Part shown: positions 4,341-22,486 of the stretch, one piece after another
Position numbering within the stretch: the stretch's first letter is position 1
How the letters are laid out: each line of letters begins with the position of its first letter
Source of the DNA: Escherichia coli
Lineage (GTDB): Bacteria > Pseudomonadota > Gammaproteobacteria > Enterobacterales > Enterobacteriaceae
Direction: 5' to 3' (one strand)
NCBI RefSeq assembly: GCF_013122565.1
Contig: NZ_CP053258.1
DNA length: 64,000 bases
Translations under genes and position numbers: made by a program
The notes under the pieces: model-generated
Database searches by the model: none
Told to the model about the DNA's origin: nothing
What the model saw: the letters and a program-made list of their open reading frames with translations, nothing else

Positions 4341-5393
4341 TTAAAACGTGACGCCCATTTTGATGCTCTGTTCCGGATGCTGATCGACATACTGCATGTA
4401 GCTTTCCGGGCTGTTGGCAAAGGTCACTACCGGGTCGATTAAATCTTCGCAATTGAGATAACCGTTCATCAGCAGTTTCCAGCAGGTTTCTTCAATACGC
4501 TTACGGCTCCAGCGCGGATAATCCGGGTTCGGTTCACTGCACGCGCGAGAGAAGACAATTTTGGCGTTATTGAAATGCGCTTCGCGTCCGAGGTTAAAAC
4601 CTTCAGCAAACGGTTTAGCAAACGCGACATAGGAGATGGTGCCACCGTAAGCCAGGCCGCGCAGCGCCGACTGCAGCGCGTCGGCGTAACCGCTGGTTTC
4701 GATAATCACATCGGCACCCTGCTTGCCGGTCAGCGTTTTGATCTCTTTGCCTACGTCAGTGCCAATGGGATTAAGGCAGAAATCCGCACCGTGACGACGA
4801 GCAATATCACAACGATGGGCAATAGGATCGACGCCAATTACCACCGACGCGCCAGCGCGTTTAGCCAATTGGATGGCAATTTGACCGATCGCGCCAAGCC
4901 CTACCACCACTACAAAATCCCCTACGCGTACGTTGGCATCGCGAACGCCACTCATGGCGAACTGCGCCGGGTCGTAGCAGACGGCGTTTTTCCAGGAGCT
5001 GCCTTCCGGCATTTTGCGCAGCTTGTAGTTATTCACTGCGTTAATGATGACCGTCTCGGAGAGCGGGCCGTAGCCGCATACGCTGTCGCCCACCGCGTAG
5101 TCGGTAACGTCGCTGCCGCACTCGATAATGTCGCCAACCACCATGTTGCCAAGCTGGAATTTGCCAAACTCAATGCCGCGCGGCGCATCTGCCGGACGCG
5201 GGGTGAACATCTGCCACTCGCCGTTAAAGTCTTCATCGATAAACGGGCTGGCGGCGCGGAAGTCGACCACTTCCGTTCCGTGTTTCGGTGCGCCGAAACG
5301 CACGCGGATCTTCACTTCATTGGCTAAAATCGCCCGATCTTCATACTCAACCAGCGCAGCAACGCGCGGTGCTGTGGCTACTAACTTTTTCAT
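4341..5393 (-). CDS. ycjQ: zinc-type medium-chain alcohol/sugar dehydrogenase
   Basis: 350-aa ORF; GLGAIGQ nucleotide-binding motif. Confidence 0.9.
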   Translation of the reverse strand: MKKLVATAPRVAALVEYEDRAILANEVKIRVRFGAPKHGTEVVDFRAASPFIDEDFNGEWQMFTPRPADAPRGIEFGKFQLGNMVVGDIIECGSDVTDYAVGDSVCGYGPLSETVIINAVNNYKLRKMPEGSSWKNAVCYDPAQFAMSGVRDANVRVGDFVVVVGLGAIGQIAIQLAKRAGASVVIGVDPIAHRCDIARRHGADFCLNPIGTDVGKEIKTLTGKQGADVIIETSGYADALQSALRGLAYGGTISYVAFAKPFAEGFNLGREAHFNNAKIVFSRACSEPNPDYPRWSRKRIEETCWKLLMNGYLNCEDLIDPVVTFANSPESYMQYVDQHPEQSIKMGVTF

Positions 5394-17771: not shown

Positions 17772-18329
17772 TTAAAACGTGGTGGGCGTATGGGCGCTGA
17801 TAATTCGGCAAATACCTGCCGACGTATTACTGAAACTGTGCGGGATGCCGGTATTAATGGCATAACTTTGCCCCGCGACGAGATGATAATCCTGACCATT
17901 AATCGTCAGAACAATTTCACCTTCCAGTACAGTGCCTATTTCCTCACCCTGATGCTTAATTCTTTCCCCGGTGGTTGTGCCAGGCTGGTAAGTTTCAAAG
18001 ATCATCGCCAGCGTGCGATTCGGGTTACCGTTATGAACCAGCTTCATTGACACACCCTGACTGCCCATCTCAATTAAATCGTCCTGATTAATGACGACCT
18101 GCGGCTCATCAGGTTTTTCCGGCTCGGAAAAGAATTCCGAGAGTGACAGACCATACACCTTCAGCAGCTTTTGCAGCGTACTGATGGCAGGGCTGACTTT
18201 ATCTTGTTCTATCGTACTGATAGCACTGTGAGTCAGCCCGGAGAGTTCGGCGGCACGACGTTGTGAAAGCCCCTGCTGCTGGCGGATTTCCGACAAGCGT
18301 TTTCCTGGCGCCAGTCCCTCATCACTCAT
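17772..18329 (-). CDS. puuR: HTH-XRE/cupin repressor of puu genes
   Basis: 185-aa ORF; N-terminal HTH, C-terminal cupin. Confidence 0.95.
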   Translation of the reverse strand: MSDEGLAPGKRLSEIRQQQGLSQRRAAELSGLTHSAISTIEQDKVSPAISTLQKLLKVYGLSLSEFFSEPEKPDEPQVVINQDDLIEMGSQGVSMKLVHNGNPNRTLAMIFETYQPGTTTGERIKHQGEEIGTVLEGEIVLTINGQDYHLVAGQSYAINTGIPHSFSNTSAGICRIISAHTPTTF

Positions 18330-18355: not shown

Positions 18356-19120
18356 TCAGAGTCGCTGTTTTTCAGCGATATGGTGCTGACAAGCGGTGAT
18401 AAAGCCCTCGAACAATATACGCGAAAGCGCGTACTCGCTACTGTTCCATTCCGGGTGCCACTGTACGCCCAGCGCAAAAGGATGATTGATGACGCTCACC
18501 GCCTCAACTAAGCCATCCGGCGAGCGAGCTTCAACACGCAACCGTGGGCTAACGACCTTCGCCCCTTGTCCATGCAGAGAGTTTACCCAAAAGTTGCTAC
18601 ATTCAGGTAACAACGCAGACAGCAATCCCCCCTCTTCAACCTGAACTTCATGCGACGGTGCATATTGCTGTTCCACCGGCAGTTCGGGATCTTCCCGATG
18701 TTCCAGCAATTCAGGCTGTTCGCACAGCTTGCGATGCAACGAACCACCGGTTGCCACCACCAGTTCCTGTAAACCCCGGCAGATGGCGAAAATGGGGATG
18801 CGCCTTTCGAGTGCGGCATTAATTAACGCCATGCTCAGAAGATCACGCCCGGGATCGGCGTCAGGCTCATCGCCGTTTTCACCATATAGGTGCGGCTGCA
18901 CATTGCTGGGACTACCAGGAAGATAAATACCATCGAGTTTCGGCAAAAGTTGTTCAAGTAATGACGGTTCCGCCAGCGCATGTGGCAGCGCAATCGGCAA
19001 ACCGCCCGCGTGGATGATGGCATTCAGGTACTTTTCTTGCAGAGTCTGGGTCGTATGACCCTTAAGCCTGTTCCTGCACATTACGACACCGATAACCGGA
19101 TTGTTCATTATATTTTCCAT
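18356..19120 (-). CDS. puuD: gamma-glutamyl-GABA hydrolase (class-I glutamine amidotransferase)
   Basis: Track ORF trimmed to MENIMNNPVIG (254 aa); catalytic Cys in AICRG. Confidence 0.9.
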   Translation of the reverse strand: MENIMNNPVIGVVMCRNRLKGHTTQTLQEKYLNAIIHAGGLPIALPHALAEPSLLEQLLPKLDGIYLPGSPSNVQPHLYGENGDEPDADPGRDLLSMALINAALERRIPIFAICRGLQELVVATGGSLHRKLCEQPELLEHREDPELPVEQQYAPSHEVQVEEGGLLSALLPECSNFWVNSLHGQGAKVVSPRLRVEARSPDGLVEAVSVINHPFALGVQWHPEWNSSEYALSRILFEGFITACQHHIAEKQRL

Positions 19121-19331
19121 GCTCAATCTCACAAAGTGGACTAAATTATCGCCATTACTGCGCTTTAAATGACCTTTATGTTCAATATTTTTTCAATCTA
19201 GCAGTGGGTTTTCATTTTTGCAAACTCAATTTAACATTTGACAAACATTTAGTTTGCATACAGATTCGAATGGTGGTCATTATATTTTACGCTTTGATAA
19301 CGAGCGGAAAACAAACCAAAGGCGAAGAATC
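19121..19331. promoter_or_regulatory. puuD/puuA divergent control region with candidate PuuR operators
   Basis: AT-rich spacer with related elements ATGTTCAATATTTTTTCAAT and TGGTCATTATATTTTACGC. Confidence 0.5.
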
Positions 19332-20750
19332 ATGGAAACCAATATCGTTGAAGTAGAGAACTTTGTTCAGCAGTCAGAAGAGAGGCGGGGTAGCGCCTTT
19401 ACGCAGGAAGTGAAACGCTACCTGGAGCGCTACCCGAATACGCAATATGTTGATGTTTTACTTACCGATTTGAATGGTTGTTTTCGTGGAAAACGTATCC
19501 CTGTTTCAAGCCTGAAGAAGTTGGAGAAAGGGTGTTATTTCCCGGCCTCGGTGTTTGCAATGGATATTCTGGGCAACGTAGTAGAAGAAGCTGGCCTGGG
19601 TCAGGAAATGGGTGAGCCGGATCGTACCTGTGTCCCTGTTCTTGGTTCCTTAACCCCTTCTGCCGCCGATCCAGAGTTTATCGGTCAGATGCTCCTGACC
19701 ATGGTCGATGAAGATGGCGCTCCCTTTGACGTTGAGCCGCGGAACGTTCTTAACCGCCTGTGGCAGCAGCTGCGCCAGCGCGGATTGTTCCCGGTCGTAG
19801 CGGTAGAGCTGGAGTTCTATTTACTGGATCGTCAGCGCGACGCTGAAGGGTATCTGCAGCCGCCCTGCGCGCCCGGCACCGATGACCGCAATACACAAAG
19901 CCAGGTTTACTCGGTTGATAACCTCAACCACTTCGCCGATGTGCTCAATGATATTGATGAACTGGCGCAGTTACAGTTAATTCCCGCCGACGGTGCGGTC
20001 GCCGAAGCCTCGCCGGGTCAGTTTGAAATCAATCTTTACCATACCGATAACGTGCTGGAAGCCTGCGATGATGCGCTGGCACTAAAACGCCTGGTGCGTC
20101 TGATGGCAGAAAAGCATAAGATGCACGCCACTTTTATGGCGAAGCCGTATGAAGAGCACGCGGGCAGCGGGATGCATATCCATATCAGTATGCAAAATAA
20201 TCGTGGCGAGAACGTGCTTTCTGACGCGGAAGGCGAAGATTCGCCGCTGCTGAAAAAAATGCTCGCCGGAATGATCGATCTGATGCCGTCATCAATGGCG
20301 TTGCTGGCACCAAACGTGAACTCGTATCGCCGCTTCCAGCCGGGGATGTATGTACCGACGCAGGCGTCGTGGGGCCATAACAACCGCACCGTCGCCCTGC
20401 GTATTCCATGCGGCGATCGCCATAATCACCGCGTGGAATATCGCGTGGCGGGTGCCGATGCCAACCCATATCTGGTGATGGCAGCGATTTTTGCCGGTAT
20501 TTTGCACGGTCTTGATAACGAGCTGCCGTTGCAGGAAGAAGTCGAAGGCAACGGGCTGGAACAGGATGGCTTACCCTTCCCGATTCGCCAGAGCGATGCC
20601 CTGGGTGAGTTTATCGAGAATGATCACCTGCGCCGCTATTTAGGCGAACGGTTTTGCCATGTCTATCACGCCTGTAAAAATGATGAGCTGTTGCAGTTTG
20701 AGCGCCTCATCACAGAAACAGAAATTGAGTGGATGTTGAAAAACGCATAG
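19332..20750 (+). CDS. puuA: glutamate-putrescine ligase (glutamine-synthetase family)
   Basis: Track ORF trimmed to METNIVEVENF (472 aa). Confidence 0.95.
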   Translation: METNIVEVENFVQQSEERRGSAFTQEVKRYLERYPNTQYVDVLLTDLNGCFRGKRIPVSSLKKLEKGCYFPASVFAMDILGNVVEEAGLGQEMGEPDRTCVPVLGSLTPSAADPEFIGQMLLTMVDEDGAPFDVEPRNVLNRLWQQLRQRGLFPVVAVELEFYLLDRQRDAEGYLQPPCAPGTDDRNTQSQVYSVDNLNHFADVLNDIDELAQLQLIPADGAVAEASPGQFEINLYHTDNVLEACDDALALKRLVRLMAEKHKMHATFMAKPYEEHAGSGMHIHISMQNNRGENVLSDAEGEDSPLLKKMLAGMIDLMPSSMALLAPNVNSYRRFQPGMYVPTQASWGHNNRTVALRIPCGDRHNHRVEYRVAGADANPYLVMAAIFAGILHGLDNELPLQEEVEGNGLEQDGLPFPIRQSDALGEFIENDHLRRYLGERFCHVYHACKNDELLQFERLITETEIEWMLKNA

Positions 20751-21052
20751 TACCCCTTGCGGGGTTGTTTCATCGGCCTGAGCGGAGCCAGGCCTGACAT
20801 TTGCTGGTAATCCAGACATTTCCCGGATGTCGCGTTATGGAGCGCAGGCGGCAACGGGCTTCCGTTAACGATTAAGACTGTGACGAGGAAATGAGATGAT
20901 GCCGATGATTAAATCCCCGCATGGCGCGGGAGGCTGCGTATGCGCCCCTCCTGCGACTGACTGGACTCCGCCCCCTTTGCTTCCCTTGCTAAACAGGTTT
21001 GATTTCAGGTCGACACGACCGCAAACCTTATTACGCAGGGGAGGCAGCAATT

Positions 21053-22438
21053 ATGGCTATTAATTCACCACTGAATATTGCTGCGCAACCCGGCAAAACC
21101 CGTCTGCGAAAATCACTGAAATTGTGGCAGGTTGTGATGATGGGTCTGGCCTATCTCACGCCGATGACTGTGTTCGATACCTTTGGCATTGTATCTGGCA
21201 TTAGCGACGGTCACGTCCCGGCGTCCTATTTGCTGGCGCTGGCGGGCGTGCTGTTTACCGCTATCAGCTACGGCAAACTGGTTCGCCAGTTTCCGGAGGC
21301 CGGTTCGGCCTATACCTACGCGCAAAAGTCGATTAACCCGCACGTCGGATTTATGGTCGGCTGGTCATCGCTGCTGGATTATCTCTTTTTGCCGATGATC
21401 AACGTCTTGTTGGCGAAAATCTATCTCTCCGCCCTCTTCCCGGAAGTGCCGCCGTGGGTGTGGGTGGTAACCTTCGTCGCCATTTTAACCGCCGCGAATC
21501 TGAAGAGCGTCAACCTGGTCGCTAACTTCAATACCCTGTTTGTACTGGTGCAAATCTCCATCATGGTGGTGTTTATCTTCCTGGTGGTTCAGGGACTGCA
21601 TAAAGGAGAAGGCGTTGGCACCGTCTGGTCACTTCAGCCGTTTATCAGCGAGAACGCGCACCTGATCCCGATTATTACCGGGGCGACGATTGTCTGTTTC
21701 TCGTTCCTCGGTTTCGATGCGGTGACCACGCTTTCGGAAGAGACGCCGGACGCCGCACGCGTGATCCCAAAAGCCATCTTCCTGACGGCGGTATACGGCG
21801 GCGTTATCTTTATTGCTGCGTCGTTCTTTATGCAGCTGTTCTTTCCCGATATCAGCCGCTTTAAAGATCCGGATGCCGCACTGCCTGAAATTGCGCTGTA
21901 CGTCGGCGGCAAGCTCTTCCAGTCGATTTTCCTCTGCACCACGTTTGTGAACACGCTAGCGTCTGGCCTGGCTTCACATGCCAGCGTGTCGCGTCTGCTG
22001 TATGTGATGGGGCGTGACAATGTGTTTCCGGAGCGCGTGTTTGGCTATGTGCACCCAAAATGGCGGACTCCGGCACTCAACGTCATTATGGTCGGAATTG
22101 TCGCGATGTCGGCGCTGTTCTTCGATTTAGTTACCGCCACAGCGTTAATTAACTTCGGTGCTCTGGTGGCGTTTACCTTCGTGAATCTGTCGGTGTTTAA
22201 TCATTTCTGGCGGCGTAAAGGAATGAATAAAAGCTGGAAGGATCACTTCCACTATTTGCTGATGCCGCTGGTTGGCGCGCTAACGGTGGGTGTGCTGTGG
22301 GTTAACCTCGAGTCAACGTCACTGACACTCGGTCTGGTATGGGCTTCGTTAGGCGGCGCATATTTGTGGTATCTGATCCGCCGCTATCGCAAAGTGCCGT
22401 TGTATGATGGTGACAGAACGCCGGTGAGCGAAACGTAA
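21053..22438 (+). CDS. puuP: putrescine importer (APC superfamily)
   Basis: Track ORF trimmed to [12 protein letters not shown] (461 aa); about 12 TM segments. Confidence 0.95.
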
Positions 22439-22447
22439 TAGTCGGAT

Positions 22448-22486
22448 GCGCGGCGCATTATCCTGCCTGAGGGTAATGCACCGCGC
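22448..22486 (+). other. imperfect stem-loop after puuP stop (possible terminator, no U-tract)
   Basis: GCGCGGCGCATTA ... TAATGCACCGCGC, 13-bp arms with one mismatch. Confidence 0.4.

Follow-up and report, generated by a model that had tools for sequence, protein, structure and literature searches.

ymjE is probably a leader open reading frame translationally coupled to the putrescine importer gene puuP in Escherichia coli

In the 64,000-nucleotide (nt) stretch of Escherichia coli DNA analyzed here (the window; contig NZ_CP053258.1 of assembly GCF_013122565.1), an open reading frame (ORF) of 55 codons plus TAA lies at 20896..21063 on the plus strand, between puuA, which encodes glutamate-putrescine ligase (19332..20750, +), and puuP, which encodes a putrescine:H+ symporter (21053..22438, +). 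Both flanking genes were placed with the ORF list and the RefSeq annotation, mapped onto the window in the case of puuA, the first gene of the puuA-ymjE-puuP unit. The small ORF is the annotated gene ymjE, and comparison of related sequences leads us to conclude that ymjE is probably a cis-acting leader ORF (an upstream ORF, or uORF) translationally coupled to puuP, the presumed controlled gene, rather than the gene of a free-standing protein. The same comparison suggests that a homologous leader with the same device stands before the paralogous importer gene plaP, where E. coli has yoeI.

An earlier note, made from the window sequence without database searches, had described this ORF. Its coordinates and length were borne out, with a translation that agrees letter for letter, and so was a stop in another frame inside puuP: the ymjE stop codon begins 8 nt after the A of the puuP ATG, producing an 11-nt overlap (ATGGCTATTAA, 21053..21063, +) that contains the puuP start codon and the ymjE TAA in different frames. 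The puuA-puuP spacer measures 302 nt (from the end of the puuA stop at 20750 to the puuP ATG at 21053). A GAGGA Shine-Dalgarno (SD) sequence does precede the ORF (20885..20889, +) and is invariant across 32 aligned sequences, but the distance of 7-8 nt given for it was off, being 6 nt to the first ATG (20896) and 9 nt to the second (20899). The ORF had also been called unannotated, which is wrong: RefSeq lists ymjE, or 'YmjE family protein', at 20899-21063, and RefSeq and EcoCyc start the 54-residue protein at the second ATG.

As a gene call, ymjE is already known, its annotation dating from 2018. The first report came from VanOrsdel et al. (2018), who obtained a specific immunoblot band from a chromosomal sequential peptide affinity (SPA) tag and placed the gene immediately 5' of puuP, possibly in the same operon; before that, it had been an unexplained positive in a screen by ribosome profiling with tetracycline-arrested ribosomes (PMC6001520). 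The profiling evidence that the earlier note had proposed as a check was in essence already published, with a positive outcome (PMC6001520). Weaver et al. found tagged YmjE among the least abundant small proteins (bioRxiv 10.1101/511675). In MG1655 the gene is b4742 (1359177-1359341), and the window protein is 98% identical to that of K-12, differing by E10A. It matches the Pfam family PF23692 'YmjE-like' at 143.8 bits (cut-off 27; E = 1.4e-42; profile positions 1-54); no NCBIfam model matches the peptide. The order puuA-ymjE-puuP, on one strand and with ymjE overlapping the puuP start, is annotated in O157:H7, in a K-12-like strain and in MG1655, and the 331 bases around the puuA-puuP spacer are 100% identical to those of E. 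coli O157:H7 strain PV15-279. By megablast, the ymjE region was present in 4,373 of 5,426 complete E. coli genomes, with the matched feature annotated as ymjE; the other 1,053 lacked the region, and six copies were on plasmids. In the searched literature, outside which many subscription papers lie, we found no paper that assigns a function to YmjE, no report connecting puuP with a uORF, a leader peptide, a riboswitch or CsrA, and no account of a leader role of ymjE, its spread in Enterobacterales, its homology to yoeI or the structured RNA domain 5' of it that is described below.

From the window sequence alone, the ORF is no more than chance would supply: a plus-strand ORF of at least 55 codons opening with ATG appeared in 19% of dinucleotide-preserving shuffles of the spacer, and in 59% when any frame was allowed. 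Since the shuffles cannot exclude chance, the case for the ORF rests on comparative and published experimental evidence. A scan for PuuA with one genome per species yielded 80 loci, and the comparison set was made up of the window and 45 of these loci (46 sequences, 45 of them distinct) in which a PuuP orthologue at least 80% identical, aligned from residue 1, is encoded directly after puuA. The set covers Escherichia, Pseudocitrobacter, Klebsiella, Raoultella, Enterobacter, Lelliottia, Huaxiibacter, Citrobacter, Cedecea, Buttiauxella, Trabulsiella, Pluralibacter, Franconibacter and Serratia, with spacers of 266-429 nt. Every spacer contains an ORF that has a conserved GAGG-type SD and ATG and ends 11 nt inside puuP. 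The ymjE frame was stop-free in all 45 distinct spacers, its indels keeping the frame, whereas the other two frames had means of 3.2 and 2.4 stops and were stop-free in 0 and 2 sequences, respectively. The ORF comes in ten different lengths from 168 to 213 nt, every one a multiple of 3. In pairwise comparisons within eight clades, using a codon alignment built on the protein in the ymjE frame, the ratio of nonsynonymous to synonymous differences (pN/pS) was 0.30-0.66 in that frame and mostly 0.7-1.7 in the shifted frames, three of whose values lay at 0.44-0.60 (Trabulsiella and Serratia).

Frame conservation, frame-specific selection and lengths in multiples of 3 rule out a chance ORF, which the earlier note had thought compatible with the Pro/Gly-rich composition, and this rejection on comparative grounds is joined by the detection of the product in K-12 (PMC6001520). 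The richness in Pro and Gly arises partly because the ORF reads a C-rich anti-SD and a G-rich SD as Pro and Gly codons. Databases carry ymjE under its name in Escherichia and Shigella only, with no function assigned. Orthologues are found in Klebsiella, Raoultella, Enterobacter, Lelliottia, Citrobacter, Cedecea, Buttiauxella, Trabulsiella, Pluralibacter, Franconibacter, Hafnia and Serratia, and outside Escherichia and Shigella they are either uncalled or labelled 'hypothetical protein'. An antisense ORF of 61 codons over the same spacer (20865-21050, -) had no Pfam match and was absent or reframed in most genera, and was dismissed as a chance ORF.

The peptide is unevenly conserved. Its N-terminus reads MM(Q/P)M(F/I)K(Y/S)P(H/Q)GEG(G/E), with nucleotide differences that often fall at third positions (TTT/TTC, TAT/TAC, GGA/GGC and GAA/GAG); in the alignment across genera, codons 1-13 (20896..20934, +) specify MM(P/Q)M(I/F)K(S/Y)P(H/Q)G(A/E)GG, and Citrobacter, Serratia and Franconibacter show a degenerate form of the motif. 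The middle third can hardly be aligned; it accounts for the variation in length, from 55 to 70 amino acids (aa). The final residues (GG..HG[DYC]) come from reading the puuP SD and start codon in a different frame. The first ATG, at 20896, occurs in every aligned sequence; the second, at 20899, is replaced in Raoultella, Franconibacter and Serratia by ACG, GTG or ACA. The true start is therefore probably 20896, which suggests that the annotated start lies one codon too far downstream and that the annotated protein is one residue short. A mini-ORF of two codons (ATG AGA TGA, 20891-20899, +) begins after the SD, ahead of the ymjE start, and overlaps both ATGs; most genera have it, Klebsiella and Raoultella excepted, and initiation at its own ATG is unlikely because that start is only 1 nt past GAGGA.

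The overlap with puuP is strictly kept. The ymjE TAA occupies puuP positions +9..+11 in 46 of 46 PuuP-type loci and in all PlaP-type loci examined, an arrangement that can be written ATG-N5-TAA. This stop is formed from the wobble base of puuP codon 3 and the following Asn codon. Codon 3 is ACT (22 loci), ATT (12), GCT (8) or TTT (2), with the final T fixed even where the codon is four-fold degenerate, whereas the wobble bases of puuP codons 2 and 5 vary freely. The last 95 nt 5' of the puuP ATG align without gaps across 39 distinct sequences, and within them RNAalifold predicts a 3' domain in which the puuP SD is sequestered by pairing inside ymjE: an anti-SD, GCUUCCC (20979..20985, +), pairs with the puuP SD, GGGGAGGC (21038..21045, +), which is fully paired in the predicted structure, and the resulting helix encloses an inner hairpin, CAGGUUUG...CAAACCU (20994..21029, +). 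In other clades the anti-SD takes the form ACCCCC or CCUCCC and the SD that of GGGGGG or GGGAGGG. When the helix and inner hairpin were considered together, 84% of cells were paired, compared to 31-52% with the partner slid by 1-3 columns. Half of the pairs in the 3' domain (9 of 18) change on both sides; among the related sequences, one SD position is CG in 30 and UA in 9 with none unpaired, another pair is CG in 24 and GC in 8, and the inner stem shows a compensatory change from GGUUUG/CAAACC to GAUCUG/CAGAUC. In the window itself, the 82-nt 3' domain has a predicted folding energy of -35.3 kcal/mol (z = -6.7), and none of 200 shuffles was as stable.

A leader this densely structured could in principle leave an open frame as a by-product of constraints on the RNA, its translation being incidental noise; a 55-codon ORF is unremarkable by chance, and the protein is scarce. 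We nevertheless give this explanation hardly any credence, as it accounts neither for indels in multiples of three across the ten lengths and 45 of 45 spacers stop-free in one frame only, nor for the T fixed at a four-fold degenerate puuP wobble position, the frame-specific pN/pS below 1 and the conserved SD and ATG. The suggestion in the earlier note of an upstream ORF coupled to the transporter gene gains support from the conserved frame, the SD and ATG, the position of TAA, selection and the buried puuP SD.

Coupling would operate as follows. In untranslated RNA, the anti-SD:SD helix would close the puuP ribosome-binding site. A ribosome translating ymjE would unwind this helix and terminate on top of the puuP start, so that puuP would be translated only along with ymjE, either by reinitiation or by a new 30S subunit entering the opened site. 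Were ymjE free of ribosomes, its C-rich body might in addition be exposed as a loading site for Rho, adding transcriptional polarity. Candidate points of control are the conserved N-terminal peptide and the 5' domain, which has three predicted hairpins. In all species, C is plentiful and G scarce in the ORF body (median C/G ratio of 1.5, compared to 0.77 upstream), and from this we infer the composition of a Rho loading site.

Several observations weigh against the coupled leader. No premature 3' end or Rho-dependent signal for the leader is listed in the Term-seq tables examined, so that it is on base composition that involvement of Rho is proposed. The sequences behind the covariation counts are related, the counts are not to be read as probabilities, and building the codon alignment on the protein slightly favors the ymjE frame. 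The leader ORF has been lost in Erwinia, Pantoea and some Serratia, where puuP is apparently still expressed. A pN/pS of 0.3-0.6 is a sign of some constraint on the peptide that an ORF serving purely for ribosome delivery does not need and that is compatible with a small protein acting in trans. Tagged YmjE, moreover, accumulates to a detectable level (PMC6001520) and hence is not instantly degraded.

These last points bear on the view that YmjE is a free-standing small protein, modulating for instance PuuP or another puu component, with the overlap reflecting operon packing. Many E. coli small proteins modulate transporters, and a detectable tagged product, purifying selection at pN/pS 0.3-0.6 and a conserved N-terminal motif are what such a protein would show. 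We regard this view as unlikely. The sequence of YmjE is rich in Pro, Gly and Arg and has no hydrophobic segment; its middle third cannot be aligned between genera while its length ranges from 55 to 70 aa, and its C-terminus is dictated by the SD and start codon of puuP. The plaP-linked homologue in E. coli has only 20 aa, the ORF is lost in several lineages, and the strict ATG-N5-TAA geometry and the helix that buries the SD are left unexplained.

Evidence for the coupled leader also comes from the paralogous importer. At the remaining loci of the PuuA scan, the transporter is 73-78% identical to E. coli PlaP and 65-67% identical to PuuP, and these PlaP-type loci have an ORF of 63-77 codons that ends exactly 11 nt inside the transporter gene. 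Such long leaders occur in Serratia, Rahnella, Rouxiella, Ewingella, Hafnia and Chimaeribacter; their N-terminus reads MGQ(F/Y)F(K/T)P.P.P.G, their SD context, ATGAGGAAATG..ATG, is much like that of ymjE, and hhalign aligned the YmjE-type and PlaP-type leaders end to end (probability 87%, E = 4e-6). In E. coli K-12, yoeI (b4678; NC_000913.3 2087052-2087114, minus strand; 5053-5115 in locus L084) encodes 20 aa, MGQFFAYATVITVKENDHVA, and overlaps plaP (b2014) by 11 nt with the same ATG-N5-TAA arrangement. YoeI looks like a shortened member of the YmjE leader family: like ymjE-puuP, yoeI-plaP pairs a small ORF with a putrescine:H+ symporter gene on the same strand through an exact 11-nt overlap, the SD context is similar (GAGGAA...ATG), and the MGQFF of YoeI matches the long PlaP-type leaders that align with YmjE. 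The two differ in that YoeI has only 20 aa, the 5' domain is undetected before PlaP-type leaders, and what precedes plaP in E. coli is a strong intrinsic terminator and not a puuA gene. Halvorsen et al. (2024) noticed the yoeI/plaP overlap, leaving ymjE unmentioned, and their yoeI-plaP construct complements better than plaP alone, hinting at an effect of yoeI on the expression of PlaP (PMC11630599). This result falls short of direct support for coupling, being reported in one sentence for a plasmid construct that also adds 5' sequence (PMC11630599).

The distribution of the leader points to the transporter as its partner. In Hafnia paralvei (L038, 4651-5973) and Ewingella americana (L077, 4440-5738), a GabT/PuuE-like aminotransferase gene lies between puuA and the leader-transporter pair, and the leader therefore belongs to the transporter and not to puuA. 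ORF-less loci were found in Serratia (L044, L046, L048, L049, L051 and L059) and Erwinia (L041 and L043). In those of Serratia, GGCGTACAGGACGCCGGTGAGGAA..ATG, elsewhere the start of the leader, directly starts the transporter gene, and the SD and ATG of the leader thus appear to have been fused to the transporter, as if the body of the ORF had been deleted.

Among known systems, the closest likeness in mechanism is mdtU-mdtJI. MdtU (YdgV) was a 'validated small protein' that was then shown to be a regulatory uORF of the polyamine transporter genes mdtJI; a predicted structure pairs part of the uORF RNA with the downstream ribosome-binding site, induction requires the uORF start codon, Rho plays a part, and many genera have kept the uORF (Adams et al. 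2021, PMC7815308). Unlike ymjE, mdtU stops 106 nt 5' of mdtJ without overlap, its conservation is C-terminal, and the two share no sequence similarity. The speFL-speF-potE leader likewise precedes an operon for polyamine metabolism and transport, SpeFL combining peptide, RNA structure and Rho (PMC7815308), but SpeFL lacks the overlap geometry of ymjE, stalls at its own stop codon through a defined sensor domain for ornithine and has no sequence similarity to YmjE.

YmjE could itself be a sensory arrest peptide, a special case of a leader ORF, whose N-terminus stalls the ribosome on putrescine or a polyamine-related metabolite and so sets the state of the anti-SD helix, the Rho site or both, in the manner of SpeFL with ornithine, TnaC with tryptophan or MdtU with spermidine. 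The motif M(M/G)Q(M/F/Y)F(K/T)..P..G is kept through synonymous change and is common to PuuP-type and PlaP-type leaders, a stable hairpin lies just 3' of the motif codons in an ORF whose body is C-rich, the products of both controlled genes import putrescine, and E. coli offers precedents of polyamine-linked uORFs (PMC7815308). We hold it to be quite unlikely nonetheless. Known arrest peptides have their critical residues at the stall site, near the C-terminus or stop, whereas the conservation of YmjE is N-terminal (codons 1-13), its C-terminus being set by the puuP ribosome-binding site, and the motif has become degenerate in Citrobacter, Serratia and Franconibacter. Furthermore, putrescine induction of puu is already explained transcriptionally by PuuR (PMC9397018).

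Constitutive coupling of ymjE to puuP is sufficient to explain the anatomy of the leader. The hairpin just mentioned, CGCGGGAGGC...GCCCCUCCUGCG (20925..20955, +; -21.4 kcal/mol, z = -2.6), lies inside ymjE directly after the N-terminal codons, and other clades have a hairpin of unrelated sequence at the same place; it also holds a GGGAGG/CCUCC pair that resembles a second SD/anti-SD couple. In secM-secA and the erm leaders, the downstream SD is locked by a helix with a strand of the upstream ORF and is opened by ribosome transit or pausing. Opening in those systems depends on a regulated stall, whereas the anatomy of ymjE needs only constitutive coupling.

Upstream of ymjE, we found a three-hairpin 5' domain that is not annotated (20773..20865, +), predicted by RNAalifold; a covariance model built on it, R1, scores 141 bits here. 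The first hairpin, P1, pairs GGCCUG with CAGGCC around the loop AGCGGAGC (20775-20794, +); P2 pairs GCUGG with CCAG (20803-20816, +); and P3 pairs CCCG..GUCGC with GCGGC..CGGG and has a conserved internal loop, GUUAUGGAGCGCAG (20822-20858, +). Across the alignment, 94.5% of cells were paired, compared to 19-48% in slid controls, and the covarying pairs include CG17/UA5/GC4/UG2, AU18/UA14 and UG18/UA12/CG2, with the loops AGCGGAGC and GUUAUGGAGCGCAG invariant. The domain is at least 99% identical in 4,334 of the 4,373 E. coli genomes, compared to only 387 for the surrounding 331-nt region, and is single-copy, with no second copy in E. coli genomes. The covariance model also detects it in Franconibacter, with a weak match in Hafnia, and in a Pantoea genome (L042, 4450-4582) the domain stands directly before puuP without a leader ORF. 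The same search found none at PlaP-type loci. Against Rfam 15, riboswitches included, the best scores in 20000-22000 were 13.9-16.1 bits, far under gathering scores of 36-70.

In a more ambitious scenario, one ancient leader system of the enterobacterial putrescine importers, of which the searched literature has no description, would have branched into ymjE-puuP and yoeI-plaP, and in it the nascent N-terminus (M-x-Q-x-F-K..P..G) and the 5' domain would sense polyamine status or a related metabolite and open the anti-SD:SD lock post-transcriptionally, with or without Rho. We consider this improbable as it stands; if true, bacteria would have an equivalent of the polyamine-sensing uORFs known from eukaryotic AMD1 and AZIN1.

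With the coupled leader, YmjE, a 'validated small protein' so far without a function, is given a specific role that can be tested, that of leader ORF to puuP. YmjE and YoeI, discovered independently, would be homologous uORFs of paralogous putrescine importers that share one exact overlap geometry, and a highly conserved, structured RNA element is brought to light 5' of ymjE. PuuP and PlaP have roles in putrescine catabolism and surface motility and as entry receptors for contact-dependent inhibition (CDI) ionophore toxins, so that a hidden layer of post-transcriptional control would bear on each of them. As mdtU had already warned, a small protein found by tagging may prove to be a regulatory uORF, and the present case adds weight to that warning.

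Sigma-54 was considered as a cause of the conservation of the 5' domain. On the plus strand of the spacer no sigma-70 promoter was found. A sigma-54-like sequence, AGGCCTGACATTTGCT (20790-20805, +; GG-N10-GC, 9 of 12 consensus positions), spans the 3' arm of P1 and the 5' arm of P2, and possibly corresponds to the RpoN promoter entered for puuP in databases. As the cause of conservation it was rejected: its spacing is found only in Escherichia and is altered by indels of 1-2 nt elsewhere. A second sigma-54 candidate (20838-20853) was also set aside, having lost its GC in many genera at a base that covaries with its P3 partner.

Further elements of the leader were seen in the sequence. A CsrA-like pattern is formed by GGA in the P1 loop AGCGGAGC, in the P3 loop AUGGAGC and in the SD GAGGA, all of them conserved; the supplementary files of PMC5694010 that were examined contain no CsrA crosslinking and immunoprecipitation (CLIP) peak at puuP, puuA or ymjE, puuP being poorly expressed there. 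A possible hairpin over the SD of ymjE itself (UCUUC/GAGGA) can pair in 83% of cells with no covariation, for which reason we leave it as unproven. Just after the puuA stop, a terminator scan picked out a short GC-rich hairpin, ACCCC-TTGC-GGGGT, followed by a poor U-tract (20752..20765, +; -7.9 kcal/mol, z = -1.6). It has equivalents of different sequence in other genera and might be a weak terminator-like or 3'-stabilizing element.

The unit belongs to the putrescine-utilization cluster, of which puuR (17772-18329) and puuD (18356-19132) lie on the minus strand; after puuP, the next genes in the window are ymjA and sapA. No repetitive extragenic palindromic (REP) sequence or bacterial interspersed mosaic element (BIME) was found in the puuA-puuP spacer, the REP-like sequence lying 3' of puuP, to which EcoCyc links REP111. 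There, just beyond the puuP stop, lies a REP-like imperfect palindrome, CGGATGCGCGGCGCATTATCC (~22443-22465, +), which is probably the REP111 tied to puuA and puuP in a transcriptome paper.

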